A stretch of 32,000 nucleotides of DNA from Scytonema hofmannii PCC 7110 (GCF_000346485.2 NZ_KQ976354.1:5780824-5812823); one strand, 5' to 3'; counted from the first letter of the stretch, positions 13,060-32,000 are shown. Made by a program: numbers and translations. The notes: a model not told the origin generated them from the sequence alone.

Positions 13060-13086
13060 CCTCAACTTCCCACAAGCCTACCGCAA

Positions 13087-15122: not shown

Positions 15123-15235
15123 TAATATAGGGATAATGGACATACAAAACAAAAGGCGCTGCCCCCGTCCTGGAAAAACGAAGCAACGCCTCTTGTGAAA
15201 TCCTAAATCCCAAATAAGGACTCAGTAAATTAATT

Positions 15236-16612
15236 ATGACTCACCCAATTTATAACGAACAACAACTTTCTGTTAAGTGCCTTTCCGAACTAAGAGATCT
15301 CTATACCGAACTCGGTTGCACTCGCGCTGTAGAGGACAAGAGAGCCAAGCAGTCTTGGGCTACAGCCATCCTCTGCTTTCAGGAAGAACGAGTCGCTAAA
15401 CTCGAGCTTCAACTGGAAGAAAAAACTTGTGCAACTTGCTCAAAATTCGATGCAGTTCGCGGTTGCTGCAAGTTGTTCGAGATGGCTGCCAAGCCCCACT
15501 GGGCAATGACTTCCGACTGCGTAAACGCGATTTCAACCGAGCAAATAGAGGTGGCTGAAACTCTTCCCCAACCCTCTGTACAACCAACCGAAGTGAGGGA
15601 AGTTGAGGCAGTTGAAAGCGTTCTTGAAGTCCCATCCACTGAAGTTCAAACTGAACCCGCACCCGGTTACAAATTTGCACTTGGCAATGGCTTCACCTTC
15701 TACCAAAAGCAGTGCGATGTTCCGTGTTGGATTGCTTGCAAAAACAGCTACCGTACCATCGCTTACCCAGAATTGGCTGATGCCGTTTGTGAAGCGTTGC
15801 GGCGGTTGGTGAAAGAGGGTATTGTTGGCGCTGGTGAACTTTTGCAAATCCATACCGAAGCGAAGAAAATCAAAACACAACTTACCTCAGTTTCATCTGG
15901 TGACTTGACCTTCAAACAAATTTCTTCTTTCACCTATCAAGTCTTTAACGGGTTACTGGATATTGGCTTAATTCATTTCACAAACAATAGGCGCTGGATG
16001 ACTGACCTCGTTTGCGATCGCACCGAATACAGTACGCCCTACGAAGCGGCAGCAGCACTCGCACAATCCGGATTGGGGTTAGTTGAAGAAGGCAGGAGGC
16101 AGAGGCTTGATGGCAGAAGGTTCTTAAAGGCTGCGGATTCAACTCTATCTGAATTAAGCAACGCCAAAGTCGTTGGGATATTGGATTCTTGTTCGCTTGA
16201 GCCACGGGTTTCAGGCAAAGATATCCCTTCTGCCTTCTGCCATCAAGCCTCTGCCTTGTTTAATAACGATTTGCTAGATAAACCATTTACCGAACTCACG
16301 ACCGTTGAATGGGATTCCATAAAGCAAAGGGTTTCGGCTGAAGTCTCTGAACGGATAGAAGAACTGTTGGAGTTGGTTGAGATAGAAGGAGATCCCGATG
16401 AAGACTTTGGCACTCTCTATAAGCTGTGGCACGGGATGAAATTGCTGGGCACTTTTTACCGGACTGTTTTTAGTGGTAAGTGGGTCGCCCGACCAGCGCA
16501 GACTAACGACGTTTTCCTTGACTGCAAAAGCGATGAAGATGCGAAGTACTGGATTCTTTATCACGAAGTGACTGGCTCGCTCGGCAGTGACGTAGTTATT
16601 GCTGCCAAATAA
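15236..16612 (+). CDS. Hypothetical 458-aa protein: N-terminal SAP/Rho_N-like HeH motif, Cys cluster, acidic Pro/Glu/Val linker
   Basis: LSVKCLSELRDLYTELGC resembles the L..L.V.ELR.LA..LG HeH motif. Also CATCSKFDAVRGCC and the linker PQPSVQPTEVREVEAVESVLEVPSTEVQTEPAP. No family recognised. Confidence 0.6.
   Translation: MTHPIYNEQQLSVKCLSELRDLYTELGCTRAVEDKRAKQSWATAILCFQEERVAKLELQLEEKTCATCSKFDAVRGCCKLFEMAAKPHWAMTSDCVNAISTEQIEVAETLPQPSVQPTEVREVEAVESVLEVPSTEVQTEPAPGYKFALGNGFTFYQKQCDVPCWIACKNSYRTIAYPELADAVCEALRRLVKEGIVGAGELLQIHTEAKKIKTQLTSVSSGDLTFKQISSFTYQVFNGLLDIGLIHFTNNRRWMTDLVCDRTEYSTPYEAAAALAQSGLGLVEEGRRQRLDGRRFLKAADSTLSELSNAKVVGILDSCSLEPRVSGKDIPSAFCHQASALFNNDLLDKPFTELTTVEWDSIKQRVSAEVSERIEELLELVEIEGDPDEDFGTLYKLWHGMKLLGTFYRTVFSGKWVARPAQTNDVFLDCKSDEDAKYWILYHEVTGSLGSDVVIAAK
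16098..16255. mobile_element. MITE-like element or long inverted repeat inside the 458-aa ORF, reading frame preserved
   Basis: Perfect 23-bp inverted repeat GGCAGAGGCTTGATGGCAGAAGG (16098-16120) / CCTTCTGCCATCAAGCCTCTGCC (16233-16255) with a 112-nt spacer. Confidence 0.45.
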
Positions 16613-16688
16613 ATAATTCCCACTAACACATGGGATGCGGACTATCCGCATCTCTCTCGATCCCCAAACAAATAACTTCAGGTGAACT

Positions 16689-16946
16689 ATGTTGACCCAA
16701 AATTTTGTCTCCAGTAACGACGATCCAAATACAGCCGAATCGGCATCTCAAGTCACTACCGAAATAGCTTCAAATCGAGAACCCATAAAACACATGCTCA
16801 TTGGTTCTCCCAAGACTGTCACCAGCACAATTCACGCCTTACAAGTCCTTGGCTATGCCGAAGTTGGGGCGTGGAGTCCTTTGCTACCAACGACCAACCC
16901 CGGTGAGGTGATGAGTCTTTTAATTCGTTATATTTTGGTGCAGTAG
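16689..16946 (+). CDS. Hypothetical 85-aa protein
   Basis: Good RBS (AGGTGA 4 nt before the ATG) and a terminator hairpin just downstream. The segment PIKHMLIGSPKTVTSTIHALQVLGYAEVGAWSPLLPT looks like a small conserved cyanobacterial family, but I cannot name it. Confidence 0.5.
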   Translation: MLTQNFVSSNDDPNTAESASQVTTEIASNREPIKHMLIGSPKTVTSTIHALQVLGYAEVGAWSPLLPTTNPGEVMSLLIRYILVQ

Positions 16947-16978
16947 TTTTTTTGACTGTAACACATCAGTCACTTATA

Positions 16979-17008
16979 CCCCCAAAACCATTGGGGGTTA
17001 TTTTTCTA
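16979..17008 (+). terminator. Intrinsic terminator of the 15236-16946 operon
   Basis: CCCCCAA (16979-16985), loop AACCA, TTGGGGG (16991-16997), then TTATTTTT. Confidence 0.55.
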
Positions 17009-17100
17009 CGTCCTCTTAAAGAAAAGACCGTGGTGCGATCGCGACAATTCTTCGTCCCAAACCAAGACGGGGAATCTCCTTGCAATGTCAAAACCCATCC

Positions 17101-17274
17101 TCAATCTTCCAAATACTTTTCACCAGTCTCAGACTCTTTTTTTTTCAACCAGTCTCTAATTGCCTCCTCTAAAGCCGCTGTTTGGGTGACTTCCAAACGA
17201 GCACAAGCCACTTCAAAGACAATTTTTAAATTTTTGGGTATTCTGCCGCGAACTTCTCTTGTCTCTTCTGCCAT
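17101..17274 (-). CDS. 57-aa ribbon-helix-helix (Arc/CopG-like) protein divergent from cas12k; below the ORF-track size cutoff
   Basis: My translation of the minus strand from ATG (17274-17272) to TGA (17103-17101): MAEETREVRGRIPKNLKIVFEVACARLEVTQTAALEEAIRDWLKKKESETGEKYLED. It shows a beta-strand then helix-helix pattern. It sits where V-K CASTs usually carry a cas12k regulator. Confidence 0.6.
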   Translation of the reverse strand: MAEETREVRGRIPKNLKIVFEVACARLEVTQTAALEEAIRDWLKKKESETGEKYLED

Positions 17275-17333
17275 TTAAACACGAAACCTTATTTCGGGCT
17301 TAATTGTTGCACAGTATATGAACAAAAATTAAG

Positions 17334-17378
17334 TTGCGCTAAAAAGCTCTTGCGCTATTGCGCGTTTGCGCTCATAAT
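17334..17378 (+). promoter_or_regulatory. Putative cas12k promoter overlapped by four TTGCGC repeats (candidate operator)
   Basis: TTGCGC at 17334, 17350, 17358 and 17366. TTGCGC(17350) plus a 17-nt spacer plus CATAAT (17373-17378) gives a sigma70-like -35/-10 pair ~115 nt upstream of the cas12k ATG. Confidence 0.4.
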
Positions 17379-17490
17379 AAAAGCGATAGTTAAAATCATC
17401 TGTTTGTAGAGTCTGCTTCGTCACTACAAAAAATTTTCCTACTCAGACATTTAAATTTCGTGCCCGTTCAATTGGTGCTAAATAACCCTT

Positions 17491-19428
17491 ATGAGCACAA
17501 TCACGATTCAATGCCGCCTAGTTGCAGAAGAAGCGACCCTGCGCTACTTTTGGGAACTTATGGCTGAGAAGAATACGCCACTCATTAATGAATTGTTGGA
17601 GCAGTTAGGACAACATCCAGATTTTGATACTTGGGTACAAGCAGGCAAGATGCCTGAAAAGACAGTTGAGAACTTGTGCAAGTCCCTAGAAGATCGAGAA
17701 CCTTTTGCAAATCAGCCCGGTCGTTTTCGTACTTCGGCAGTTGCTCTGGTAAAGTACATTTACAAATCCTGGTTTGCGTTACAAAAACGACGGGCGGACA
17801 GACTAGAAGGTAAAGAGCGCTGGTTAAAGATGCTCAAAAGTGATGTGGAACTGGAACGAGAAAGCAATTGTAGTTTGGATATTATTCGAGCTAAAGCTGG
17901 GGAAATTCTTGCTAAAGTTACTGAGGGGTGCGCTCCGAGCAATCAAACATCCTCTAAGAGAAAAAAGAAGAAGACTAAAAAAAGCCAAGCGACAAAAGAT
18001 CTCCCTACGCTTTTCGAGATTATATTAAAAGCTTACGAACAAGCTGAAGAAAGCCTGACACGAGCTGCCCTTGCTTATCTCCTTAAAAATGACTGTGAAG
18101 TCAGTGAAGTTGATGAAGATTCAGAGAAATTTAAAAAGCGACGGCGAAAAAAGGAAATAGAAATTGAACGTTTAAGAAATCAACTGAAAAGTCGGATACC
18201 TAAAGGTCGCGATTTAACCGGAGATAAGTGGTTGAAAACGCTAGAAGAAGCCACCCGAAATGTTCCTGAAAATGAGGATGAGGCAAAAGCTTGGCAAGCC
18301 CAACTCTTAAGAGAAGCTAGTTCTGTTCCTTTTCCTGTAGCTTATGAAACTAGTGAAGATATGACTTGGTTTACCAACGAGCAAGGTCGAATCTTTGTTT
18401 ACTTTAATGGTTCAGCCAAACATAAATTTCAAGTTTATTGCGATCGCCGTCAACTTCATTGGTTTCAACGTTTTGTAGAAGACTTTCAAATCAAGAAAAA
18501 TGGTGATAAAAAAGGTAGCGAAAAGGAGTACCCTGCTGGGTTATTGACGCTTTGTTCCACTCGTCTGAGATGGAAAGAAAGCGCGGAAAAAGGAGATCCT
18601 TGGAATGTTCATCGCCTAATTCTTTCTTGCACTATCGATACACGCTTATGGACACTTGAAGGAACGGAACAGGTGCGAGCTGAAAAGATCGCTCAGGTTG
18701 AAAAAACTATTAGCAAGCGGGAGCAAGAAGTTAATCTGAGTAAGACTCAACTTGAGCGTTTACAAGCCAAGCACAGTGAGAGGGAGAGATTGAACAATAT
18801 TTTTCCCAACCGCCCTAGCAAGCCCAGTTACCGGGGTAAATCTCATATTGCGATCGGTGTAAGCTTCAGTTTGGAAAACCCAGCCACTGTTGCCGTCGTA
18901 GATGTTGCAACCAAGAAAGTCCTTACTTACCGCAGTTTCAAACAATTACTCGGAGATAACTACAACCTTGCAAACCGGCTGCGGCAACAAAAGCAACGTC
19001 TTTCTCACGAACGTCACAAAGCTCAGAAACAAGGCGCACCAAATTCATTTGGAGACTCAGAGTTAGGGCAGTATGTAGACAGATTGCTAGCAAAATCGAT
19101 TGTCGCGATCGCAAAAACTTATCAAGCTAGTAGTATTGTCTTGCCTAAACTTCGCTATATGAGGGAAATCATACATAATGAAGTTCAAGCTAAAGCCGAA
19201 AAAAAGATTCCAGGATATAAAGAAGGTCAAAAACAATATGCCAAACAGTATCGGATAAGCGTTCATCAATGGAGTTATAATAGATTATCACAGATTCTTG
19301 AAAGCCAAGCTACAAAAGCTGGAATTTCAATTGAACGTGGATCGCAAGTAATCCAAGGTAGCTCCCAAGAACAAGCACGAGATTTAGCTTTATTTGCCTA
19401 TAACGAACGCCAACTTAGTCTGGGTTAG
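17491..19428 (+). CDS. cas12k: Cas12k (type V-K effector, nuclease-dead)
   Basis: MSTITIQCRL...NTPLINELLEQLGQHPDFDTW...RQLHWFQRFVEDFQ...HIAIGVSFSLENPATVAVVDV...SHERHKAQK...YAKQYRISVHQWSYNRL parallels ShCas12k as I remember it, along its whole length. RuvC motif I reads GVSFS, with Ser where the catalytic Asp would be. Confidence 0.95.
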   Translation: MSTITIQCRLVAEEATLRYFWELMAEKNTPLINELLEQLGQHPDFDTWVQAGKMPEKTVENLCKSLEDREPFANQPGRFRTSAVALVKYIYKSWFALQKRRADRLEGKERWLKMLKSDVELERESNCSLDIIRAKAGEILAKVTEGCAPSNQTSSKRKKKKTKKSQATKDLPTLFEIILKAYEQAEESLTRAALAYLLKNDCEVSEVDEDSEKFKKRRRKKEIEIERLRNQLKSRIPKGRDLTGDKWLKTLEEATRNVPENEDEAKAWQAQLLREASSVPFPVAYETSEDMTWFTNEQGRIFVYFNGSAKHKFQVYCDRRQLHWFQRFVEDFQIKKNGDKKGSEKEYPAGLLTLCSTRLRWKESAEKGDPWNVHRLILSCTIDTRLWTLEGTEQVRAEKIAQVEKTISKREQEVNLSKTQLERLQAKHSERERLNNIFPNRPSKPSYRGKSHIAIGVSFSLENPATVAVVDVATKKVLTYRSFKQLLGDNYNLANRLRQQKQRLSHERHKAQKQGAPNSFGDSELGQYVDRLLAKSIVAIAKTYQASSIVLPKLRYMREIIHNEVQAKAEKKIPGYKEGQKQYAKQYRISVHQWSYNRLSQILESQATKAGISIERGSQVIQGSSQEQARDLALFAYNERQLSLG

Positions 19429-19506
19429 TTATTAAAATACCGTACCTTGAAAATATCATAAGCTAATAAAGAATCAATACTTTACTACATTGTTTGACAG
19501 GCTCCC

Positions 19507-19540
19507 AAATCCCCAAATTCTTATAAGTTGTTGGGGATTT
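19507..19540 (+). terminator. Perfect 10-bp hairpin after cas12k, overlapping the putative tracrRNA -35
   Basis: AAATCCCCAA (19507-19516) / TTGGGGATTT (19531-19540) with a 14-nt loop. No strong U-tract follows, so terminator function is uncertain. Confidence 0.35.
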
Positions 19541-19565
19541 GGTCAACCTCACCTAATATGGTAGA

Positions 19566-19910
19566 GTACTAATAGCGCCGCAGTTCATGCTCTTTAAGAG
19601 TCTCTGTACTGTGGAAAATCTGGGTTAGTTTGACGGTTGGAAAACCGTTTTGCTTTCTGACCCTGGTAGCTGCCCGCTTCTCATGCTCTGACTTTTCACG
19701 TTATGTGGAAAAAGTAACGTAATTTCGTTAGTTAAGACTTACCGTAAAAAGTCAGTTCTGATGCTGCTGTCGCAAGACAGGATAGGTGCGCTCCCAGCAA
19801 AAGGAGTATGTCTTGAAAAAGACTAGCCGTTCTAGTAACGGTGCGGATTACCGCAGTGGTGGCTACTGAATCACCCCCTTCGTCGGGGGAACCCTCCCAA
19901 ATATTTTTTT
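19566..19910 (+). ncRNA. Type V-K tracrRNA (~345 nt, ends approximate)
   Basis: Blocks TAATAGCGCCGCAGTTCATGCT, GGGTTAGTTTGAC, TTGCTTTCTGACCCTGGTAGCTGC, CTGATGCTGCTGTC..GACAGGATAGGTGCGCTCCCAGCAA and GTGGCTACTGAATCACCCCC..GGGGGAACCCTCC match the ShCAST tracrRNA/sgRNA scaffold from memory. The candidate promoter is TTGGGG-17 nt-TAATAT (19531-19559). A T7 run at 19904-19910 follows the CCCCC/GGGGG hairpin. Confidence 0.8.
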
Positions 19911-20099
19911 GGCAAAGCCAAGCGGGGGCAAAAACCCTGAGGTCCTGCCAAAACACGGAAGCCCTTGTTATATCTTGATTTCAAAATCTAGGTTGTTAAT
20001 TAATTTAGTTTTTTGGTTTTAAGATAGAGCTACTTTTACGCAGCCTTGCCAAATATGCTTGTGTAACGCTCTAAATAATAAGGGTTTTAGACGGGTAGA

Positions 20100-21307
20100 G
20101 TTTCAACAACCATCCCGGCTAGGGGTGGGTTGAAAGTTGTTCCTATGGATCTAGAGTCAAACACGACTTACGCGTTTCAACAACCATCCCGGCTAGGGGT
20201 GGGTTGAAAGGTAAAAATTGAGTCTCTTGAAAGCCATCAAGCGCGTTTCAACAACCATCCCGGCTAGGGGTGGGTTGAAAGAGTGCGGGTGTAAAGATCG
20301 TGACGTGCAGAGGCGAGCGAGTTTCAACAACCATCCCGGCTAGGGGTGGGTTGAAAGTTCCACGGTGAAAATTTTTCGCTTACAACCCGCACCAGTTTCA
20401 ACAACCATCCCGGCTAGGGGTGGGTTGAAAGCAAATGGCACCGAGTCAAGCGCATGGGGAGATTTGTGTTTCAACAACCATCCCGGCTAGGGGTGGGTTG
20501 AAAGGCTAATAACTGTGCTAGAGCAAAAAATAAGTAACATGTTTCAACAACCATCCCGGCTAGGGGTGGGTTGAAAGCGAAATGAGCTTGGTAGATTTTT
20601 TAGCAAAATGGGACGTTTCAACAACCATCCCGGCTAGGGGTGGGTTGAAAGAGGCAATTGCCCTCAGCTGCACAAATTGCCCAAGGGTTTCAACAACCAT
20701 CCCGGCTAGGGGTGGGTTGAAAGATTCATTTGGATCGCAATCCCCTCAACTTCAAAAAGTTTCAACAACCATCCCGGCTAGGGGTGGGTTGAAAGAAGTC
20801 GGTTTCTTCCGCCGCCTTGCGTGGGAGTTTCAACAACCATCCCGGCTAGGGGTGGGTTGAAAGCGGAGGATGCGAGTTATCGCCTGATGCGATCGCACGT
20901 TTCAACAACTATCCCGGCTAGGGGTGGGTTGAAAGCCGATCCTTTGGAGTGGGCAGAAGATCTGAGAGTGCGAGTTTTAACAAGTATCCCGGCTAGAGGT
21001 GGGTTGAAAGAATTAACTCCTCCTAATGCGTATCTTCTGGCGTTTTTGGTTTCAACAACCATTCCGGCTAGGGGTAAGTTGAAAGGAGTGCCACTGTTGG
21101 TGGAATCCTGGTTGCGGCTGGAGTTTTAACAAGTATCCCGGCTAGAGGTGGGTTGAAAGATTGATGATGTACCGGGGTAGACCAATCCCTCCGGAATGTT
21201 TCAACAACCATCCGTACTAAAGATGGATTGAAAGATTTGGTGCAAAATAGGGTCAAGTTATTTTTCAAAAATTTCAACAATTATCTGGCTATAGAATCAG
21301 TTCAGTA
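20100..21307 (+). CRISPR. Type V-K CRISPR array: 16 repeats of 37 nt (20100-21234) plus a degenerate 17th (21271-21307); spacers 31-39 nt
   Basis: Repeat GTTTCAACAACCATCCCGGCTAGGGGTGGGTTGAAAG starts at 20100, 20174, 20245, 20321, 20395, 20468, 20541, 20615, 20687, 20759 and 20827. Variant copies start at 20899, 20974, 21049, 21123 and 21198. Degeneration toward the 3' end places the leader on the tracrRNA side. Confidence 0.97.
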
Positions 21308-21968: not shown

Positions 21969-22188
21969 CGACATTAATTTGTTAACGTTAGTTGGAACTA
22001 ATTCGACGACATTAATTCGTTAACAGCGACATTAATTTGTTAATCGACACTAAATGGAGAAACAGGACGACATTAATTTGCGAAAAGTTCCTATAATTGA
22101 ATTGATGAGACAAACTATTCTAAACGACATTAATTTGCGAAAAACGACACAAATTTGCGAATTACGACATTTAATTTGCGAATGTACA
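21969..22188. mobile_element. CAST transposon end (RE in ShCAST nomenclature; distal to tnsB) with 8 direct TnsB-binding-type repeats and terminal TGTACA
   Basis: CGACATTAATTTG(T/C)(T/G)AA-type repeats start at 21969, 22007, 22027, 22045 (degenerate), 22068, 22125, 22145 and 22165. The last one runs into ...AATTTGCGAATGTACA (22183-22188), analogous to the ShCAST end ...AATTTGTCACTGTACA as I recall it. Confidence 0.8.
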
Positions 22189-22485
22189 TTTGCGGTTCAT
22201 TTAAGTAGGTAGTCTTTGGGCGGGAAAGGAGTAGAAAACACTATAAACTACTTAAAAGAACATAATTTAAACCGCAGCAACTGATATGCTAGGGAGATTA
22301 TAGCGCTCGCTTTCCAACCCCACAAAACGAGGGATATTAGTTTTGCCAATTGTGATTTTTTCTGAGTTCTAATTTGAAAGGACAGGTTTTGCAATATTTT
22401 TAAAATCAGATTGTGGTTGCTAGCGATAAGCCGGGTACGGCTTGCGCTTCGCGAACGCACTGATTATACCTCACACAATTTTCAA

Positions 22486-23340
22486 TCAGCCATCAGCATA
22501 TGCTTTTTCCAACAAAGCTAAGGGGTCAGTCCAACGGCGAATTATCTGGGCTGGGGAGACAGTACGCCTCTGTTCGATGATTGCCAAGGTTTCTAACTGA
22601 TTGAGACACTCCTGTAATGCTTCTGTTTCTATACCAAGAATAGGCGCTAATCCCATTTTCTGCTGTAGGAGATCGTCGGTTAAAACAGAGGTTGTATCGC
22701 CAAAATCCCGTTCCCACAATTTGGCTAGAAAGTATCCAATTAGATAAGGATTGGGTAAAGTAGCATTTCTAGTAGTATATGTATCTTCGTCTAATGTAAG
22801 AAATTGGCAATACTTTAGAGGAGATTCTTCCTTGGTATTTTTATTAGGTGACAACGCATATGCTTTCAAAACAATCGTAAAGTTTTCCATGAGTCTCTTT
22901 TCAGAGTCCTGCTCAAAAATAACAGCGCTACATTGTACTAACTCATTTAGTGTGAAAGTAGGGAGTTCGGGTAAAAAACTATAAACGAAGTAAGACCAAC
23001 CACCCCAATCAGAAGGGTTGTCGGGTGGTTTTGCTAGTCCTTTGTCACCAAAGCTGAGGTAGAAGTGCATCAACCAGTCCGTGATGGTTGATTTTAGATA
23101 AGGGTCTTTTTCAAGAACAATCTTTCCTTCCGGGCTAAGGTAGTTGTCACGAACTAATCCTGCCCTCATCGCCCAACTTTTCATCGGAGCAACTTTCTTA
23201 TTTCCTAAACTTGTTCTCTCCATTAAGTTTTCTATAGTATCTTTTAAACCTTGTTCCTCAGCAGCTGTGCAAAGGATTTTAAGCAGGTCTTCTTTCTTAA
23301 GAGCAAATGTAGTGTGAAAACTAAGTTGTAACCTAGGCAT
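22486..23340 (-). CDS. DUF4007-like protein (SspB-like component of Ssp phosphorothioation systems)
   Basis: Size, the N-terminal SFHTTFAL...LGNKKVAPMKSWAMRAGLV pattern (DUF4007-like, from memory) and linkage to the cysteine desulfurase and PAPS-reductase genes. Confidence 0.5.
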   Translation of the reverse strand: MPRLQLSFHTTFALKKEDLLKILCTAAEEQGLKDTIENLMERTSLGNKKVAPMKSWAMRAGLVRDNYLSPEGKIVLEKDPYLKSTITDWLMHFYLSFGDKGLAKPPDNPSDWGGWSYFVYSFLPELPTFTLNELVQCSAVIFEQDSEKRLMENFTIVLKAYALSPNKNTKEESPLKYCQFLTLDEDTYTTRNATLPNPYLIGYFLAKLWERDFGDTTSVLTDDLLQQKMGLAPILGIETEALQECLNQLETLAIIEQRRTVSPAQIIRRWTDPLALLEKAYADG

Positions 23341-23464
23341 GAATGTTTTGTGGTAGAGAATAAAAATAGTATCTAGAGTTAATTAAGCCCTTACTTAGGA
23401 TGCCCAAAAAATTCCAAAGTGATACATCAAGACAGATTAAGTTTTTGATGTTCAACTCCAACTC

Positions 23465-23665
23465 TCATGGCTCCCGTCTCGGCGGTTTGTAGTTGTAATC
23501 TTCGTAGTAGTCAATTGTCCCAAACAACTCCAACACCTTAGACTGTTTGCGACGTTGTACATATTTGCCCAAGGCAACTTTGACCACATCACGCTCCGTT
23601 TGTTGATTGCCAAGGGCTAGGGCGTCTTGGATGAATGCTTTTTCTATTTGAATATTGATTGCCAT
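23465..23665 (-). CDS. VapB-family type II antitoxin-like protein with no adjacent toxin gene
   Basis: MAINIQIEKAFIQDALALGNQQTERDVVKVALGKYVQRRKQ..LELFGTIDYYEDYNYK follows the M..NI.ID..L..A....G..TK.E.V..AL...V.R... / G.I....DY.Y. pattern of VapB antitoxins. Confidence 0.55.
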   Translation of the reverse strand: MAINIQIEKAFIQDALALGNQQTERDVVKVALGKYVQRRKQSKVLELFGTIDYYEDYNYKPPRREP

Positions 23666-23720
23666 CCACTTACTTTTTGGGCAAACTACTATGTAATTAA
23701 GATTTTACATAAACCTTGCT

Positions 23721-24887
23721 TTAAAAACACATAGCTTGACGGATTAGATGAACGGCAGACGACAGAATTTCAGCCGCCTGTTCGATTTCTGCACTCGTTG
23801 TAAATTTGCCAATCCCAATCCTTAGCGCTCCTTCAATTAAGTTGGAGGGTAAGCCCAAGGCTTGCAGAACATGAGAAGGTGTTTCTACACCTGATGAGCA
23901 AGCAGCACCTGTAGAAATAGCTAGCTGATGCCGAACTCTGGCTATAACTGCACTATTGGGAACATCAGGTATGGAAATATGGAGATTTCCTGATAAACGA
24001 GAGGATAAATCGCCGTTGACCGCTAAATCGGGAATTTTCTTTAGCAGTAATTTTTGTAATCTATCTCTTTTGATAGCGATCGCTTGTTCATCTTCTGCCA
24101 TTTCCAACTGACGCAGGCGACAAGCTTCTCCCAAGCCAACAATACCGGGAACATTGAGAGTTCCAGAACGCAAGCCCTTCTGATGACCACCACCGAATAA
24201 TATTGGCTTTAAATGATACCCTTTACGGATAACTAAAGCACCAGACCCTTTGGGACCGTAGAGTTTGTGAGCGGAGATTGCTAGATAAGTAATTCCCCAC
24301 TCTTCAAAATTGATAGGAATTTTGCCTACAGCCTGGGAAGCATCGCATAGAAAAGGGACACCATACTTTTGAGCAATTTGCCCAACAGCTTGAATGGGGT
24401 AAACGTTCCCAATTTCGTTATTAGCTGCCATAACGCAAAGTAAAGATAGCCCTGATGCACAAACTTGCTCAAGATATTCCAAGTCAAGCCTCCCTTCGGA
24501 ATCAACTTTCAAGTAAACAATCTCAGCAAGTCCCCGTTTAGCTAAAGCGTGGCAAGTGTCTAAAACTGCTTTGTGTTCAACAGGTAGAACAGCAATTCGG
24601 TGCTTTTTGTTCGCTTGAGAAAGCAGACTGCCTTGAATAACTATATTTATGCTTTCAGTTGCACCAGAAGTAAAAATGACTTGCTTTGGCGATACGCTTA
24701 CTAGTTTACCAACGTGAGAAGCTGATTTTGAAACGGCTTGTTCTGCCTCATTCCCATATTCATGATCTATGCTGCTTGCATTACCAAATGCTGTGGTCAT
24801 GTAATGCAGTATCAATGGTGCGACTCTGAGGTCTACAGGAGTCGTCGCATGATAGTCTAAGTAGATGATGTTACCTTTTCTAGTCAC
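23721..24887 (-). CDS. Class V aminotransferase / cysteine desulfurase (SspA/DndA/IscS-like)
   Basis: IYLDYHATTP, TSGATESIN, the PLP-lysine context SAHKLYGPKG, RSGTLNVPGIVG and the active-site loop STGAACSS. Confidence 0.9.
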   Translation of the reverse strand: MTRKGNIIYLDYHATTPVDLRVAPLILHYMTTAFGNASSIDHEYGNEAEQAVSKSASHVGKLVSVSPKQVIFTSGATESINIVIQGSLLSQANKKHRIAVLPVEHKAVLDTCHALAKRGLAEIVYLKVDSEGRLDLEYLEQVCASGLSLLCVMAANNEIGNVYPIQAVGQIAQKYGVPFLCDASQAVGKIPINFEEWGITYLAISAHKLYGPKGSGALVIRKGYHLKPILFGGGHQKGLRSGTLNVPGIVGLGEACRLRQLEMAEDEQAIAIKRDRLQKLLLKKIPDLAVNGDLSSRLSGNLHISIPDVPNSAVIARVRHQLAISTGAACSSGVETPSHVLQALGLPSNLIEGALRIGIGKFTTSAEIEQAAEILSSAVHLIRQAMCF

Positions 24888-25118
24888 TGGATATTAATAT
24901 AAATTTCTCTACCGGATTTTTGGAATTCATCCATTTTTATCAGAAATTTTGACCTATATATCTATGTGCTTTCTGCTTGATTGCTTCAATAACTGCATAA
25001 CGCCCTGCACTGCTATTGATGTCTTCTTTCTAAAAGAGCTTTTAAGAAAATTCCTCTTAATTTTGTTGACCGATACTGATTGGGAAATGATTGCTAGAGC
25101 AGCAAATTCAACATCTGA

Positions 25119-27383
25119 TTAAGTGAGCCAATCATACATACGATCCCAAAGAATATCACATATACGCTCTGTTCTTTTTTCTACAAAAGCTTTATCCCAT
25201 TTACCAGATGCTCCTAACTGCACAATAGGCACAATATGATGCTTGTGGGATGTCTTTTGCAGTAATTTGATTGTATCTTCGCATAGATTTACTCCATGCT
25301 TTTCCGCTTCTTTCTTTAATTTTTTTAAAATATCAGGATCTGTTTCTGCTAAATGTCGATAGTAAATCCATTTTTCAATCCAACCTTTATTACTAGCAGA
25401 ACTGTTAATTTCTTTAGGAAGAAGAGTCAAATTTCCAATTTGTTCATAATCATCATTTTCATATAACGCTTTATCCCAAATACTATTTCTTGTTTGAGAT
25501 TTAGGCGCTACGTGCTCTATATGCTTAAAATTTTCATCATCCCATTTACTTGGTTCTAAGTACGGGGAAGAGTGTAACATCCCATTTTTCATTAACCCTA
25601 AAGCACTTGGATCTGGAATAGTATCATGTGATGTCACAAAAAGTACAAATCGACAAACTTGTTTAGCATTATCATATCTCAAATATTGAACTGCTTTTTT
25701 CTTCCAGTCATCTTTATTTCCTATTCCTTTATCATCTAGCTTCTTCCTAAAATATTTCCGCAAATTTTCCACCGTTAACTCAGCATTACCTTTTTTCCAT
25801 GACATTTTTTCGTGAAGCAAGTCTCGATATACATCATCAAGACCCGTATTTGGTAATGCTGACCTCCAAATAGTAAAAAAAGCTGCAACTGTTTTACAAG
25901 TGAAAACAAATTCTCGTTCTGAATTGGGTTCGTTGCGTAAAATAAGAGCATAGAAGCGACTCAGAATTGTATTTGCCATCTTATGTCCTGCATCCTGAAG
26001 GTAAAGTAGACAAAGAATAGCTTCCTTTCTCTCTGGTTCTGCTACATTCTGTATTTCAGTTAAAGCACTATAAAGGTTTTTCTTATTGGAGGAATAAATT
26101 AACTTACTACAGTAGTTAGCAGTATCACTCATCCGGCGGACAAATTCTTCTCTAAAGCTGATTTTGTCTTCTTTAATATATTCATCTATTAACCAATTTC
26201 TCTGGGCGCTAAACTGCTTTGATAACTTTTTTCCATCATATGCTAGTGCAAAAAGGTTGAGATATTCATTTGTTCGTTTGTTTTTACTAGAAGCACTTCG
26301 CAAGGTACTCATTAGTTTTTCTACTTGTGTGAAGTATTCTTCTGATTTTGAACCCTGAAATCCATTCCCCTTTGAGTCAACATAATTAACAACCAATGGT
26401 TTGAAGGTTTCTAGAGCTGTAAGGGGAGTCCCCGTTGCATTTAGGGACTGAAACATATCAAATGCCCGAACTTGGGACACTGGTTGGATTAAGGTGAGGC
26501 AGCATCGTTCAAGTAAGAAATAACAAAAGGCAAAAAGCTGTACAAGTGAGCAGACTTTTTCTTGTTCATCAGTCATTGGAGTGTTACGATGCTGAATTAA
26601 ATTAACTAGATCTGGTCGCTGATAACTCCATAAGTCTACTTGATTTACCTTTTCCAGTATGTCCCAAGCTGGAGGAAAGTCTTCTGTACTTAATTTATGT
26701 GCGTTTTCAATTTTATCGAGCCAGAATTTCATGGCTTTCAAATTATCCGCAACGAGCGAGTTTTTTCTCGGATCCGGATATTGATTTGGATTAAGATAAA
26801 TAGCACATATAAAGCTTGCTAGAAATGAAGAAACATCGGATTTATAGTGCTTATTATCATCTCCACTTAATGTCCATCCATCAATTGAACCTCTAATAAG
26901 AATTGGCTTACGATTAGGTTTACCACGCATAAGGTCAACAGAAAATACATCTAAGAGAGTATTTAAATAAGTATTACTTGCTTCCTGTAATTCTTCCATT
27001 TCATCTCTTTCTGGCAATTGTTTTGTAATTTCGCATATTCTTCTGTATAAACAGCAGGCAAGTAAAGTAATAGTTGATAGCCGTTGTTGTCCATCGATAA
27101 CATTATCTATACGAGTAGGAAGAGCACGAGGATCTTGTGGCTTTACATTGTTTTCAACATCATTTTCGGTCACTAGAATGATAGTTCCCATAAAGTGAAG
27201 CGTATCCGCAGAGTCAAGTAGGTCTTTAACACCCGAACAGATATCATCCATCAATTGTTCAATGTTTTCTTCATCCCAGCTATATTCTCGTTGGTATAGA
27301 GGAATATAATATCCAATTCCTGGTCTTCTAAAAAAATATGATACTGATTCACTAACCGTGCTAAACGCTCTTGATATTTCCAT
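25119..27383 (-). CDS. DUF262 + DUF1524 protein, SspE-like phosphorothioation-associated restriction component
   Basis: N-terminal YYIPLYQREYSWDEENIEQL and DGQQRLSTITLL (DUF262). C-terminal HIEHVAPKS ... GNLTLLPKEINSSASNKGW (DUF1524/His-Me finger). The 754-aa size and its position inside a PT operon fit SspE. Confidence 0.75.
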   Translation of the reverse strand: MEISRAFSTVSESVSYFFRRPGIGYYIPLYQREYSWDEENIEQLMDDICSGVKDLLDSADTLHFMGTIILVTENDVENNVKPQDPRALPTRIDNVIDGQQRLSTITLLACCLYRRICEITKQLPERDEMEELQEASNTYLNTLLDVFSVDLMRGKPNRKPILIRGSIDGWTLSGDDNKHYKSDVSSFLASFICAIYLNPNQYPDPRKNSLVADNLKAMKFWLDKIENAHKLSTEDFPPAWDILEKVNQVDLWSYQRPDLVNLIQHRNTPMTDEQEKVCSLVQLFAFCYFLLERCCLTLIQPVSQVRAFDMFQSLNATGTPLTALETFKPLVVNYVDSKGNGFQGSKSEEYFTQVEKLMSTLRSASSKNKRTNEYLNLFALAYDGKKLSKQFSAQRNWLIDEYIKEDKISFREEFVRRMSDTANYCSKLIYSSNKKNLYSALTEIQNVAEPERKEAILCLLYLQDAGHKMANTILSRFYALILRNEPNSEREFVFTCKTVAAFFTIWRSALPNTGLDDVYRDLLHEKMSWKKGNAELTVENLRKYFRKKLDDKGIGNKDDWKKKAVQYLRYDNAKQVCRFVLFVTSHDTIPDPSALGLMKNGMLHSSPYLEPSKWDDENFKHIEHVAPKSQTRNSIWDKALYENDDYEQIGNLTLLPKEINSSASNKGWIEKWIYYRHLAETDPDILKKLKKEAEKHGVNLCEDTIKLLQKTSHKHHIVPIVQLGASGKWDKAFVEKRTERICDILWDRMYDWLT

Positions 27384-27664
27384 TACACCCTCCTATTAAA
27401 GAAATGTCTAATTCATATTTAATGATGTCAATTTGTTAATTATTTATTAGATGAATAACAAGTTATTGAAAATAATAGGCTAAACAACACAAACTCAGAT
27501 TTGAGTGAGTTATCAATTCAGTTAAAAATCGATTAGACATAAAATTATTTTCCTTGAGTTTTCTTAAATTCCCCATAATTAATTCATGTGTCAAATTTTA
27601 ATTTCTAACTTTTCCTTTCTGTATTCATACGTTCTACTTGAAGTCATTTTTCTTATAATAAACC

Positions 27665-29968
27665 CTACGTTTCTTCAACCGTAATACTTAGCAAACGATT
27701 CACGATTTTCTCCGCTTTTGCGAATTCTCCTAAACTCGCATAAATATTTTGCTTGCTCTTTTCGCGTACCTCTGACTCTACAATATCTTGTCTTTGCTGA
27801 ACAGTTTTCTCAATTTCATTTGCGTCTTTACCTTCACCAGTTAACCTAGCATACAGCATTTGAATTTCTTGTTTATATTCATTTGAGTTCAGAGTTTTTT
27901 TGACAGCGGCCTCTATATAATCTGCTCGCAATTTTAAAATGCTATCTATTATATTTGGTAAAGAATTTTTATAGGCTTCTGCTAGCGAAGGAGCGCTATC
28001 TGTGTTTAATTGATTTAATACTGTCTTATAAGCATATTTTGAGTGAATTATTTCTAAAATTGCATATCGGAAGAATATCCATTGTTCTTCATTAAGTTCT
28101 GATATGCTTTGTGAAAGAAGTCCTCGAAGACTCAAGTGATTAGGATCGAATATTCTAGTTCTATCTTCATTTACAAAACCTGTTAAAGTACGATGCTCAA
28201 CATCGGAATTAGAAGAAAAATAGGTATTGAGTGCAGCAATATATAGATTAGTTATAAATTCAATAACTTGGAATCGTCTGTTGTAAGATATTCCCGGTTC
28301 TATTAACAATTCAACAATTGAATGAACAGCCATTAAAAATCCTAGCTGGAAAGCTTGGGTAGACACTGTATCAAAAATCCACTTAGCACGGATAAGCAAC
28401 TCTTTTTGATCAGATTCGCTACCTTCTATCGAAAAAAACTTGTCATAATCAATACTAAAAAGCCTTGCTGCTCTTCGACGTTTTATCTCTTCTTGCCTCA
28501 TAGTAAGAGCAGAAGCCGTTGAGAGAGCATCATCCAGTTGATTGGTGATGTAATCATTACCAGCGCTTTCCTCATTCTGTTGCCTTTCTCGTAGACGCTT
28601 GATATGCTCATCAAAAACGTTTCTTACATTACTGCCTTCAAACAATAAGCTGTAGCATTTGTGTTGAATAGGATTTCCTTTCAATGCTGGGTCTGATAAA
28701 CGAGTGCGTAAAGCTCTCATTTCATAGTTATGTACAGCGAAGGGATGGAATTTGTCAAAAAGTGGAAGTATGACGGCATCTGTTACATCTGCCAAAAGCT
28801 TAACAGCTTCTTGAACTTCATCAGGAGAGTGATATTTACCAGAACGACGAGAAAGTGAAGACCATTTTTGAAGTGTTGTTCCTATTAGAATAGAGGCTGA
28901 ACGTTCTGAGTTTTGTGTCTTTCTACCATCCGTAATATCTTGTGTCTGCTCTAAATTAAAAGCTGCAGGCATACCGAAAGATGCTGCTGCATGCATTTTA
29001 TGTAGAGCCACAGCAGATGTGTATTCAAGCTGACCTACAACAACTTCGGTTTTCCTATGTTGTGCTTCTGAGACTGCATCACCAAATGCAAAAGAATAGA
29101 TTCGGGCAATTGATGCTTCTGACTCGCCACGACCTTTAAGCTTTGACAATGTTTCTCGCATCATCCTTGCTGCCAAGTCTTCGTCATCTAATAAAAGTTC
29201 TCGTGATTTACTAACTGGCTTAGCATTTTTGTTAACAACTAAAAATATTTCTCGACATATTGTTTTTAAATCAATACCCTTATGTTTATATTTCTCGTTA
29301 TTTTCATATAAATCGGGGAAGAAAACTATGCATATTGGTAGTTCTATATTTCTGATTTGAGCTTCTTTTAATGAAAGATGATTGTAAAAAGCAGCATAAC
29401 TATTTCCTGCCCAGCTATCATTAATCTGACGGTGCAAGGCTAAAACTGCCATAGCCCGATGTTGTCCATCCACAATAATGAAAGCTGTTTGCTGTCTGTT
29501 ATATCTAATTACACCAAGAGGACTAATTTGTTCTCCAATTTTTGCTATTTCAAAATCAAATAAATCACCAAAGCTAATTGAAACTTCACTTTGATTAGGT
29601 GGATTAGGATAATAAGATTTAATGCCAGTTTTATCGGTTCTTTTAGGAACTAAAACTGCTAGAATTGGTGGAAAAAATCTAGCAAATGCACCTGAAGCTC
29701 CTAGTAAGTAAGGTATGAGGTCGTGAGCAACACGAGAGTCATCAAGATCGCGTTGTAGAAGTTCATCAAAGGTTAATTCCTCAATATTGAACACTTCACG
29801 CCAAGGAACCATCTGAGAGGCTAAAGCATTCTCCCAGCTACCTTCAGAACCAGGTTTCATCTTTGTTAATAAAAATTGAGCACGTACCTTATTATCATCA
29901 GAGCCAATAGTAAATTCACCGTAAGTTCCGTAAATTGGATCTTTCTGGACTCCAAAACTGAATGACAT
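27665..29968 (-). CDS. Large DGQHR-motif (DndB/ParB-like) protein
   Basis: AFIIVDGQHRAMAVLAL motif ~170 aa from the N-terminus, then a long helical C-terminal region. Its start lies 3 nt from the stop of the upstream 227-aa gene, suggesting translational coupling. Confidence 0.7.
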   Translation of the reverse strand: MSFSFGVQKDPIYGTYGEFTIGSDDNKVRAQFLLTKMKPGSEGSWENALASQMVPWREVFNIEELTFDELLQRDLDDSRVAHDLIPYLLGASGAFARFFPPILAVLVPKRTDKTGIKSYYPNPPNQSEVSISFGDLFDFEIAKIGEQISPLGVIRYNRQQTAFIIVDGQHRAMAVLALHRQINDSWAGNSYAAFYNHLSLKEAQIRNIELPICIVFFPDLYENNEKYKHKGIDLKTICREIFLVVNKNAKPVSKSRELLLDDEDLAARMMRETLSKLKGRGESEASIARIYSFAFGDAVSEAQHRKTEVVVGQLEYTSAVALHKMHAAASFGMPAAFNLEQTQDITDGRKTQNSERSASILIGTTLQKWSSLSRRSGKYHSPDEVQEAVKLLADVTDAVILPLFDKFHPFAVHNYEMRALRTRLSDPALKGNPIQHKCYSLLFEGSNVRNVFDEHIKRLRERQQNEESAGNDYITNQLDDALSTASALTMRQEEIKRRRAARLFSIDYDKFFSIEGSESDQKELLIRAKWIFDTVSTQAFQLGFLMAVHSIVELLIEPGISYNRRFQVIEFITNLYIAALNTYFSSNSDVEHRTLTGFVNEDRTRIFDPNHLSLRGLLSQSISELNEEQWIFFRYAILEIIHSKYAYKTVLNQLNTDSAPSLAEAYKNSLPNIIDSILKLRADYIEAAVKKTLNSNEYKQEIQMLYARLTGEGKDANEIEKTVQQRQDIVESEVREKSKQNIYASLGEFAKAEKIVNRLLSITVEET

Positions 29969-29971
29969 AAA

Positions 29972-30655
29972 TTAGCGCCTCCCGCATATTGGATCTGAGA
30001 CAAGTTGTAAAAGCTTTTCTAAAGCACGTCTAGAAGTAGTATCAAATTCGGTATCATCATTATCTTCACCAATTTCAGCCGGAAGAGAATTAGTAGGAAA
30101 TATATGTACCATTAAGTCTCTTGGAGCTATTCTTCTAACTCTTGCTTCAAGAGGAAATGAATGAGGTATATTTAGCTGCTTCATAGTGGATTTAACACTT
30201 GCATTAGGAAAGATATTCAGGTGTTTACTGATTGAGGAAGTATCATTCCACATCTCATCTAAAGATATATAGTGTTGTAAATAAGCTCTTCGATATAAAT
30301 TCTTTGCTATACCTATATAAATGGGTCTAGTAAAAAAATACAAGGCATTAGATTTAAACAAGTCAATTAGAAAATTTTCAGCGCAAGCTACAACTTCATC
30401 AAGTACTTCTGACGCTATCTGTCTTTGAGATCCATACACAAATTTCAAGGTAGATTTTGATACTAAATGTACACCATAACGCATTTCGATCTCTGTCAGC
30501 ATTTCACTTGGAGTTTCAAGAAAAGATGCAATAGTCTGACTGACAACAAGAGTATCTACCACAAGTGGTCTATAATACCAAGCGTATAAACCTGATACAG
30601 GAGGAATTCGTGCAATCTGCACTCCACCTTGGAACTGCCTTTGCTCTTTTTGCAT
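29972..30655 (-). CDS. 227-aa protein, possible GIY-YIG-like nuclease with a long insertion between the GIY and YIG strands
   Basis: SGLYAWYY near the N-terminus and RPIYIGIAKNLYRRAYLQHY ~85 aa later resemble the GIY ... YIG-x-A-x-N-L-x-x-R motifs. The functional call is weak; the ORF itself is solid. Confidence 0.45.
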   Translation of the reverse strand: MQKEQRQFQGGVQIARIPPVSGLYAWYYRPLVVDTLVVSQTIASFLETPSEMLTEIEMRYGVHLVSKSTLKFVYGSQRQIASEVLDEVVACAENFLIDLFKSNALYFFTRPIYIGIAKNLYRRAYLQHYISLDEMWNDTSSISKHLNIFPNASVKSTMKQLNIPHSFPLEARVRRIAPRDLMVHIFPTNSLPAEIGEDNDDTEFDTTSRRALEKLLQLVSDPICGRR

Positions 30656-30767
30656 CTATTCACCTAAATAATCTCGTAAAATGATTTGATTTTTTATATT
30701 TTGGTTCTTCAGTACTTGTTATGCTAAATTAACAGATACTGAAGAGCCTATATTTTTAGCGTTTAAT

Positions 30768-31565
30768 TCATAAATGACAAGCAAAGCAAGGCTGTTCATC
30801 ATCTTCCTCCTCTAGTATAGAATTTAGCGCTTCTGCTAACGATCTACCGGGAGCAAGTATTTTCTCCCTAGCCATTGCTTTCTCATGCTCAATAATAATT
30901 TCTTCTTTTCTTTCGAGAAGTTCTAATAACGTTTCTCCTTCAGTCCATGTGTAACTCCTACCGTCTTTATGTTCCTGTTCGTATTTTACAGCTTCAGCGA
31001 ATAAGTCTGGATGCTCCTCTGCCAACTTTACCCATTCATACTTCCGTTGGAAAAAGCAGAAGAAACAACCAGATCGACTGCGCCAACGATAGTAATCTGG
31101 CATCCCAATTCCGCTTTCTTCAAGCAAACGAATAATATCTGCCTTTACGAGTCCTCGTTCTTTAAAGGGAAAGATAGGTTTGATATTAGGTTTGGTGGAG
31201 ATATAACCCTCTCGATTTTCGTCAGCCCGAATGCCAATGTAACTTTTAGCCTCATCATCACCTACAAACTTTTCTAGCGGCTCTATTTTCATTTTTTTGG
31301 TACACCATCGCATTTTAGGAGAGGGCAAAAATCCACCATAAATGTCAAGCCAGTGGTCAAATCCACGCTCAGCGCTGAGGTATTCAATTTTTATTCCCAG
31401 CCTAGCTTTGATACGGTCTAGATACTCGTAGGTTTCCTCTAGTTCCTTGTGCGTGTCGCAGAAGAAATATTCCATGTCCGGAATTTCCTTGTGTAGCAAA
31501 ACAGCCAAGGCCGTGCTATCTTTGCCTCCGGATAAACCTAAAATATGTCTTTCTTTCTTACCCAT
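30768..31565 (-). CDS. PAPS-reductase / ATP-pyrophosphatase family protein (SspD/DndC-like)
   Basis: PP-loop LSGGKDSTA at the N-terminus, Cys pairs CFFCFF and CFACH near the C-terminus, operon context. Confidence 0.8.
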   Translation of the reverse strand: MGKKERHILGLSGGKDSTALAVLLHKEIPDMEYFFCDTHKELEETYEYLDRIKARLGIKIEYLSAERGFDHWLDIYGGFLPSPKMRWCTKKMKIEPLEKFVGDDEAKSYIGIRADENREGYISTKPNIKPIFPFKERGLVKADIIRLLEESGIGMPDYYRWRSRSGCFFCFFQRKYEWVKLAEEHPDLFAEAVKYEQEHKDGRSYTWTEGETLLELLERKEEIIIEHEKAMAREKILAPGRSLAEALNSILEEEDDEQPCFACHL

Positions 31566-31587
31566 ACTCTTCTTGCTTTTGCCCTGG

Positions 31588-32000
31588 TCAATGATCGCTG
31601 TTTACTTTTAATTGGTCACTATTAAGTTTATCTCTCCTTGGAGAAAGGTTATCGATTCTTGTTGAGCCTAACACACGTTCAGTCAATTTGGCTACAACAG
31701 CTTGGTGAAATTGCGGGTTGTCAAATTTATTGATAATATCCCACAATTTATCTACCACATCATCAATTTGCGCTTGGTTTTCGTGGTCAAACCAAACCAA
31801 AGAGTGAGTTTCTTGCCCGTCTGGGCGAGTTACTGTAATTTTACGTGCTTCAAATCCCTCATTGCTACGAGTTTGAGCATCTTTCTGTAATGCCTCAAGG
31901 TTTTTGAACCGTCTTGCAATGTCTGACAGCTTAATTTCAAAATTTGTTACATCTTCATCTGTCCAAGAAGTAGCGGGTTTATCAGCAATAATCATCACTA
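31588..32000 (-). CDS. C-terminal end of an upstream operon gene, truncated by the window edge (possibly the SspC-like ATPase)
   Basis: The ORF is open to the window edge, and its stop lies 22 nt before the PAPS-reductase start. The function is guessed from operon context only. Confidence 0.4.
   Translation of the reverse strand, partial: VMIIADKPATSWTDEDVTNFEIKLSDIARRFKNLEALQKDAQTRSNEGFEARKITVTRPDGQETHSLVWFDHENQAQIDDVVDKLWDIINKFDNPQFHQAVVAKLTERVLGSTRIDNLSPRRDKLNSDQLKVNSDH

Follow-up and report, generated by a model that had tools for sequence, protein, structure and literature searches.

Scytonema hofmannii PCC 7110 carries an Ssp DNA phosphorothioation locus with a widely conserved p227-DGQHR gene pair stacked with sspE

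We analyzed a 32,000-nt stretch of the Scytonema hofmannii PCC 7110 genome (NZ_KQ976354.1:5780824-5812823; the window in what follows), focusing on the locus at positions 22486..32000. The region takes in the downstream two-thirds of an Ssp DNA phosphorothioation defense locus of a Scytonema-like cyanobacterium, with a pair of genes between sspD and sspE that encode a 227-amino-acid (aa) protein, p227, and a 767-aa protein carrying a DGQHR motif. An earlier reading of the DNA by itself (the sequence-only reading) had proposed eight co-directional open reading frames (ORFs) on the minus strand across 22486-32000, all of which were recovered at the same coordinates: the 3′ end of sspC, sspD, the p227 and DGQHR genes, sspE, the cysteine desulfurase gene sspA, a VapB-like ORF, and a DUF4007 gene. 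Its family calls for SspC, SspD, SspE, the desulfurase, VapB, and DUF4007 hold by hidden Markov model (HMM), with E-values far beyond chance, and in the PADLOC/Pfam check both the DUF4007 and the PAPS-reductase calls stand. The identification as an Ssp-type phosphorothioation locus is upheld by the recognizable SspC end, SspD, SspA, and SspE, and so is its composite character, two ParB-superfamily proteins (the DUF262 protein SspE and the DGQHR protein) indeed coexisting in it. Of the genes in it, the 227-aa and 767-aa ones are without a PADLOC model. Homologs of the window's proteins are mostly cyanobacterial. Overall, the backbone and SspE are ordinary Ssp system members and the pair is the new part, and the locus is best filed as a composite, i.e., a known phosphorothioate (PT) system with an uncharacterized, widely conserved candidate effector/regulator module stacked with SspE.

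The right end of the window falls within sspC (31588..32000, minus strand; PADLOC SspC model PDLC02781), the gene for the large ATPase of the modification complex, of which the last 136 codons are included, the rest of the gene lying beyond the window end. The fragment matches profile positions 1022-1103 of 1104 (E = 2e-26), and at the DNA level it shares 93.5% identity with the 3′ end of sspC in Scytonema sp. NUACC26 (locus L077), where the gene is full length. It is followed by sspD (30768..31565, minus strand), encoding a PP-loop/PAPS-reductase-family sulfur-incorporation enzyme that matches positions 1-276 of the 277 in the PADLOC SspD profile (E = 3e-113), scores 56.5 bits with Pfam PAPS_reduct (above the cut-off), carries an SGGKDS motif, and has 94% protein identity to NUACC26 SspD. 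The cluster-linked cysteine desulfurase gene sspA (23721..24887, minus strand) scores equally with the PADLOC SspA and DndA models (449 and 450 bits, respectively) and reaches 230 bits with Pfam Aminotran_5. Its DNA is 93.5% identical to that of the desulfurase gene placed after the ssp cluster in NUACC26, the position behind the intervening slot (see below) being conserved.

Relatives were compared in 77 genome loci around homologs of the DGQHR protein, the ORFs of which were scored with the window proteins. A desulfurase lies ≤10 kb away in 26 of the 46 relatives with full flanks. Where enough flank is present, the relatives all have the order sspB-sspC-sspD, placing the cognate sspB, which codes for the DUF4007 nickase, outside the window; by this colinearity the gene is expected just past the window's right end. 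The sequence-only reading had considered the modification genes to be split by the effectors. This view was not sustained: sspB, sspC, and sspD are contiguous in the relatives, and the detached position of sspA, typical of the window's lineage as judged from the relatives' loci, is already known, as a variable trait, from ssp loci (PMC12914056). In two close cyanobacterial relatives, L001 (7139..8405) and the Limnospira locus L003 (7803..8411), one or two genes of the Uma2 family (putatively restriction-endonuclease-like) lie between sspC and sspD, indicating that even the sspC-sspD junction takes insertions.

The sspE gene (25119..27383, minus strand) encodes a DUF262 nucleoside triphosphatase (NTPase) joined to a DUF1524 HNH nickase. 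Its product matches the PADLOC SspE model over its full length (1254 bits), contains the Pfam GmrSD_N and GmrSD_C domains, and aligns with two solved structures, EcSspE (PDB 20yv, E = 1e-102) and StSspE from Streptomyces (6jiv, E = 1e-89). Residues Y30, R101 (in the DGQQR motif), and N660 align with EcSspE Y63 (PT sensing), R133 (GTP hydrolysis), and N724 (HNH), which are reported to be essential (PMC13251355). The window's SspE is canonical, with its key residues intact. In characterized SspE proteins, PT is sensed via a Tyr-containing pocket and GTP is hydrolyzed at DGQQR, after which foreign DNA is nicked (PMC9646914; PMC13251355). A 20-nt direct repeat, 85% identical, links 27081..27100 to 29456..29475, i.e., the DNA coding for DGQQR in sspE and for DGQHR in the 767-aa gene; beyond this repeat, the two genes show no similarity at the DNA level. 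We also considered the DGQHR protein as a close paralog of the window's SspE and rejected this, since hhalign aligned just the 10-residue DGQxR motif.

Comparison with NUACC26 delimits what lies between sspD and sspA. By blastn, 93.5% identity extends from the right end of the window to position 30765, the exact sspD stop, and resumes at the same level from 24947 to 23698, covering sspA plus 60 nt upstream. The 5.8-kb interval between these points (24948..30764, from the sspD stop to the sspA promoter region, no strand assigned) holds p227 (29972..30655, minus strand), the DGQHR gene (27665..29968, minus strand), and sspE, and has a G+C content of 33-37% versus ~41% in the flanks. The corresponding NUACC26 interval (6514..12358) is occupied by two divergent pairs of a small and a DGQHR protein, of 225 plus 754 aa and 190 plus 664 aa, arranged tail to tail (convergently); the 190-aa protein gives a Pfam GIY-YIG match with an E-value of 0.004. 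With near-identical flanks and a replaced interval, the sspD-sspA region is thus identified as a variable cargo slot. Candidate effectors between modification genes, as put forward in the sequence-only reading, are indeed present, although as two modules (the p227-DGQHR pair and SspE) rather than as three separate genes.

Other relatives carry different cargo in this slot. The Limnospira locus has DarT/macro (DarTG) and PIN toxin-antitoxin genes; L082 has genes for a DEAD helicase, an ATPase, and a phospholipase D (PLD) protein ahead of the desulfurase; L084 and L085 have SspE alone, followed by a module resembling bacteriophage exclusion (BREX) systems; and a Nostoc contig (L083) has a 170-aa protein, a bona fide 450-aa DndB (Pfam, 102 bits), and SspE. 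In a sample centered on sspD, comprising 56 metagenomic loci in which ≥1.5 kb of sequence follows the gene, the first gene after sspD was one of three small-plus-DGQHR pair types in 12, sspE in 8, a second DUF4007 gene in 6, a desulfurase gene in 3, and unrecognized in 27. None of these 56 loci had both the pair and SspE, so the stacking seen in the window is uncommon; it recurs in the genome loci L057, L059, L083, and L005, in the last of which p227 is destroyed. No repeats or att-like sites were found at the slot boundaries, and promoter and terminator scans gave no excess over shuffled expectation. The locus shows the sspD-sspA interval as a cargo slot where defense modules stack.

Within the slot, p227 and the DGQHR gene form one conserved, translationally coupled pair. 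In the window, the DGQHR start codon is 3 nt past the p227 stop; a small ORF precedes the DGQHR gene in 70 of 84 cases, 67 of the 70 matching the p227 HMM, and the two ORFs usually either overlap, by up to 31 nt, or stand no more than 6 nt apart. Close homologs number >338 for the DGQHR protein and 139 for p227, often on the same contigs and under names such as "DndB" or "hypothetical protein." The recurrent order in the fetched loci is sspB-sspC-sspD-p227-DGQHR, which was seen in Cyanobacteria, Melainabacteria, Alphaproteobacteria, Poribacteria, Gemmatimonadetes, Latescibacteria, Desulfobacterota, and Myxococcota. A second DGQHR clade, 26-29% identical, in Pseudomonas, Pseudoalteromonas, Acinetobacter, Burkholderia, Mycolicibacterium, Streptomyces, and other genera, likewise follows sspBCD and has a 210- to 250-aa ORF in front; the p227 HMM recognizes these distant-clade small ORFs with E-values of 1e-7 to 1e-20. 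Both sspC and sspD lie ≤10 kb from the DGQHR gene in 37 of the 46 full-flank loci, and pair loci linked to sspC/sspD occur in about ten lineages, Gammaproteobacteria and Actinobacteria included.

The identities of p227 and of the DGQHR protein to the window proteins co-vary (Spearman rho = 0.88, n = 58). The pair is decoupled from SspD, as in NUACC26, where SspD is 94% and the DGQHR protein 27% identical to its counterpart in the window. The pair is absent from PADLOC 2.0.0, and in the open-access literature searched, which did not include Xiong et al. 2020, neither DGQHR proteins nor GIY-YIG partners turned up in connection with sspBCD. It is apparently an undescribed, widespread two-gene module.

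Several individual relatives of the pair may be recorded here. L082, on plasmid A of Trichormus variabilis ATCC 29413 (3661..20153), carries sspBCD-p227-DGQHR on a conjugative plasmid, flanked on the opposite strand by a gene annotated as [quoted passage not shown] and its p227 is annotated as two separate coding sequences (CDSs; 171 and 513 nt). In metagenome-assembled genomes of Hormoscilla (L007, L008, L010, and L033), the DGQHR protein is 63-67% identical to the window's and has neither p227 nor sspBCD within 10 kb; the gene is split in L033. These Hormoscilla genes are possibly symbiont-genome relics, or they may represent a solo mode of the protein. The 170-aa partner of the 450-aa DndB in the Nostoc contig shows a compact GIY-YIG-like motif set by eye and has no Pfam match; against the p227 family, hhalign aligned its YIG core only (5.6% probability).

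The small partner has no curated match in PADLOC, Pfam, NCBIfam, PHROGs, or PDB. Among 1.84 billion representatives, 301 clusters (50% identity) belong to its family at E ≤ 1e-3, nearly all of them stand-alone proteins of 200-250 aa, and the window's p227 is full length at 227 aa, as in most relatives. Invariant across both clades are G22, Y24, W26, P111, Y113, G115, H128, F167, E213, P222, and G225, with R123 nearly so, and these residues include a GIY-YIG-like pattern of G22-x-Y24, Y113-I-G115, R123, H128, and E213. Pfam GIY-YIG matches 21 of 40 family members, all under the 22.6-bit cut-off (best E = 0.005), with distant-clade members reaching down to 6e-4. In hhalign, the family gives 43% probability to I-TevI and 23% to UvrC, and the family profile (A1) aligns its YIG-R-H core with I-TevI in PDB 1mk0 at E = 1.2. 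In p227, the spacing is 10 residues from Y113 to R123 and 5 from R123 to H128; we take I-TevI Y17-R27-H31 (spacings of 10 and 4) to be the counterpart. Similarly, the C-terminal "L-E-x-x-L-N-R-I-x-x-P-x-L-G-R-N" of p227 resembles the Glu...Asn helix of UvrC. The searches agree in giving weak support. The GIY-YIG-like label given in the sequence-only reading can be kept for the motif pattern, which is present, and not for the score, which stays under every curated threshold. We regard p227 as a likely candidate for a GIY-YIG-like nuclease.

The large partner has a literal IVDGQHRAMA at residues 165-174, of which D167-G-Q-H-R171, along with many other positions, is invariant in 37 homologs. Pfam DndB narrowly accepts the protein (30.4 bits versus a cut-off of 29.1) and matches all 37 family members in their N-terminal third, whereas TIGR03187 scores 32.3 bits, under its cut-off of 58.85; family residues 66-275 align with bona fide DndB at 93.5% hhalign probability. 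The layout is a DndB-type ParB-like domain at ~60-280 followed by an ~450-aa C-terminal region predicted to be alpha-helical. An AlphaFold2 (AF2) model has a confidence score (pLDDT) of 81, with the C-terminal helical part mostly at 85-95. For this C-terminal region, no known family or solved structure was matched by Pfam, Foldseek, or profile searches against PDB. The whole protein had no PADLOC match, the DndB model included, and no usable match in NCBIfam, PHROGs, or PDB sequences; the family profile gave noise only against PDB, and Foldseek with the AF2 model found nothing there at E ≤ 0.001. The gene's length is in line with that of its relatives (754-830 aa). It departs from DndB proper in its 767 aa with the added ~450-aa helical domain and in its position after sspD, with no dndCDE nearby.

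Downstream of sspA lie two further ORFs of the locus. The DUF4007 gene (22486..23340, minus strand; Pfam, 53.9 bits) gives a weak PADLOC SspB match (53 bits) and had been taken for the sspB of the system. This assignment was rejected: the protein aligns only in part with NUACC26 SspB, at 23% identity, and has no significant similarity to L001 SspB, while it is 76% and 59% identical, respectively, to the second DUF4007 proteins encoded after sspE in L085 and L084, which head BrxC/PglZ/BrxL-type modules. In L084, the second DUF4007 gene is followed by genes for a 153-aa protein, an 1810-aa SspC/BrxC-like protein, PglZ, and BrxL, and such an "sspBCDB-brxCZL" arrangement has already been noted in cyanobacteria (PMC12914056). 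A tblastn search with the partner proteins of L083, L084, and L085 found no remnant of BrxC, PglZ, or BrxL in the window, so the DUF4007 gene is an orphan remnant, the lead gene of a BREX-type-4-like module without its partners. The 66-aa VapB-like orphan ORF (23465..23665, minus strand) scores 35.3 bits with Pfam VapB_antitoxin (cut-off, 23.4) and has no counterpart in any fetched relative locus. It was rejected as half of a toxin-antitoxin system, there being no adjacent PIN/VapC ORF; its neighbors are sspA and the DUF4007 gene. Both would be leftovers of a neighboring BREX-type-4-like module, outside the working Ssp system.

Beyond the DUF4007 gene, part of the flanking DNA, at 22191..22461, is conserved in NUACC26, and four direct repeats of the ACGACATTAATT type, 67-100% identical, lie at 22005..22175, between the DUF4007 gene and an array of clustered regularly interspaced short palindromic repeats (CRISPR). 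In the array (20100..21085, minus strand; ~1.4 kb from the DUF4007 gene), a 37-nt repeat occurs at least 13 times, each copy scoring 58 bits with Rfam CRISPR-DR15; no recognizable cas gene was found in the window. ORFs at 20582..20860 and 20821..21129 fall inside the array and were dismissed as artefacts. Near the array, ORFs of 458 aa (15236..16612, plus strand) and 645 aa (17491..19428, plus strand) have no Pfam match and could be divergent cas or other defense genes. Farther to the left, signal transduction ATPase with numerous domains (STAND)-type NTPase genes stand in a row at 869..5389 (minus strand; an AAA_16 protein, a WD40 protein, and an NNH5-NACHT protein), with a separate NB-ARC plus TPR STAND-type protein encoded at 10194..12770 (plus strand). 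A second DUF262/GmrSD_N protein of 623 aa (6492..8363, plus strand; 101.8 bits), with no detectable DUF1524, is positionally unrelated to the Ssp locus. The window as a whole is a defense island, with its CRISPR array and STAND NTPases.

The explanation that best accounts for the whole is that of an Ssp locus with a cargo slot holding SspE and the pair, the latter acting as a split analog of SspE/DndI; we put its probability at roughly 0.55. Known SspBCD proteins work together with SspA or IscS to introduce single-strand PT marks (PMC9646914; PMC13251355), and SspB, SspC, SspD, and the desulfurase SspA would do so here on host DNA. The slot would be hot-swappable, with two effector modules, SspE and the p227-DGQHR pair, stacked in it. 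In the pair, the DndB-type ParB-like NTPase domain and the helical C-terminal domain of the large protein may bind DNA and read its PT status, and the small GIY-YIG-like p227 may supply the nicking against unmarked invader DNA. This proposal builds on the precedent of SspE and DndI, both characterized PT-sensing effectors, which join a ParB-like NTPase to a nuclease (PMC11662687), together with the shared slot and the cargo-like exchange of the pair. That the pair constitutes a new PT-dependent restriction effector family of at least three divergent clades, a split SspE/DndI with a different sensor and nuclease fold, is a tentative proposition which we rate at somewhat less than an even chance.

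A number of observations weigh against this explanation. The NTPase, PT-sensing, and nuclease activities of the pair are all inferred, and the completeness of the modification module is read from relatives, sspB and most of sspC being off the window. The GIY and YIG elements are ~85 residues apart in p227, versus ~10 in the canonical fold; the GIY-YIG assignment is under the curated threshold throughout; and the AF2 model of p227 (pLDDT, 89) has no Foldseek neighbor in PDB or BFVD at E ≤ 0.001. Some DGQHR genes, in the Hormoscilla loci, L013, and several actinobacterial loci, are without a small partner or nearby sspBCD. In Laspinema sp. D2d (L005, 7459..12331), sspE directly follows sspD, replacing all but the last 33 codons of p227, and the DGQHR gene is intact despite the p227 loss; the remnant in front of an intact DGQHR gene shows how slot cargo gets overwritten. 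Lastly, DndB, the closest named family of the large protein, is described as a modification regulator and not as an effector, as cited in a comparative study (PMC10853773).

This last point leads to the rival that fares best, namely, that the pair serves the modification machinery in an accessory or regulatory role and is no restriction effector; it would be an Ssp counterpart of DndB that limits or tunes PT installation by transcriptional repression or NTP consumption. The regulator role reported for DndB (cited in PMC10853773) fits with the DndB-type domain being the only recognizable one in the large protein, with the pair's place directly after sspD in the modification operon and its tight linkage to sspBCD, and with the bona fide 450-aa DndB that occupies the same position beside sspE in the Nostoc contig; the window, moreover, already has a complete SspE effector. 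However, the pair has been exchanged between clades on a near-identical sspBCD/sspA backbone and is duplicated in NUACC26, which is typical of effector cargo, and it shares the slot with SspE and other defense cargo. The small partner also has a nuclease-like motif set, and the large protein, at double the size of DndB, carries an additional domain of ~450 aa. We regard an accessory or regulatory pair as rather unlikely, and as the alternative most worth keeping in mind beside the split-effector explanation.

We consider it improbable that the pair is an independent defense system that merely shares the island and has no functional dependence on phosphorothioation. Such a system would be at home in a dense defense island with a CRISPR array, STAND NTPases, and another DUF262 protein, and several DGQHR loci do lack sspBCD within 10 kb; yet adjacency to sspD, with gaps of tens of bases, recurs in about ten lineages and in three divergent pair clades, and sspC and sspD accompany the gene in the 37 of 46 full-flank loci. 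Least probable by our estimate is that the cargo is a decaying, nonfunctional remnant of successive insertions with only SspE active, for although the locus contains clear remnants (the orphan DUF4007 gene and VapB-like ORF) and copies are disrupted in relatives (p227 truncated in Laspinema and in two CDSs in T. variabilis), neither gene is truncated in the window (227 aa, as in most relatives, and 767 aa versus 754-830 aa), the invariant residues are all kept, and the coupled 3-nt junction of the relatives is preserved.

The value of these data lies less in the window's locus than in the conserved pair that it exposes. About 84% of sspBCD clusters are "orphan," without a known restriction partner (PMC8092258), i.e., they may be orphan epigenetic systems or have unknown effectors, and the pair is a concrete, testable partner candidate. 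In the SspD clade sampled, the three pair clades together follow sspD more often than SspE does (12 versus 8 of the 56 metagenomic loci) and, if the pair is an effector, could account for part of the ~84%. Defense annotation tools would then under-call Ssp systems, and PT sensing would have arisen on ParB-like scaffolds on two or more occasions, combined with different nucleases. Should the pair turn out to be a regulator like DndB, no regulator of Ssp modification would have been described before it.

Among known systems, the locus is readily compared with SspABCD-SspE, reportedly owed to Xiong et al. 2020. SspC, SspD, SspA, and SspE are recognizable in the window, and SspE keeps the PT-sensing Tyr, the DGQQR Arg, and the HNH Asn of the system known from Vibrio cyclitrophicus FF75, Escherichia coli 3234/A, and Streptomyces yokosukanensis (PMC9646914; PMC13251355). 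Single-strand PT modification, for example CpsCA, and PT-dependent phage resistance are further traits of that system. The window differs in having the two-gene DGQHR module between sspD and sspE, sspA after sspE, an extra DUF4007 paralog after sspA, and sspB off the window. SspABCD-SspFGH, known from Vibrio anguillarum FF-93, offers a precedent for an alternative multigene restriction module paired with sspBCD; a single modification module can also serve SspFGH and SspE side by side, their protection being additive (36 genomes; PMC8092258). No ORF of the region matches PADLOC SspF, SspG, or SspH at E ≤ 0.01, and the pair differs from SspFGH in having two genes instead of three, no sequence relation, and no Walker A or FtsK-like protein. 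With the sspBCDB-brxCZL islands (PMC12914056), the window shares a DUF4007 gene orthologous to the second DUF4007 gene heading such modules in L085 and L084. In place of genes for BrxF-like, BrxC-like, PglZ, and BrxL proteins, it has the CRISPR array ~1.4 kb on.

The closest parallels of the pair itself are DndB and DndI/SspE. DndB proper is an ~360-aa protein encoded with dndCDE. The 767-aa protein belongs to the same domain family and has the invariant DGQHR, but it is twice as long, has the helical C-terminal domain, is linked to sspBCD and not to dndCDE, and is accompanied by a small GIY-YIG-like partner. URI/GIY-YIG nucleases have been noted near dnd genes in a comparative study that did not treat ssp neighborhoods (PMC10853773). 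In DndI (of IscS-DndBCDE-DndI) and SspE, a DGQxR ParB-superfamily NTPase domain is combined with a nuclease beside PT genes, which is the logic proposed for the pair. In contrast to these proteins, where the NTPase is fused with HNH, the activities of the pair would sit on separate polypeptides, with a ParB-like domain of the DndB (DGQHR) instead of the DUF262 (DGQQR) type and a candidate nuclease that is GIY-YIG-like instead of HNH.

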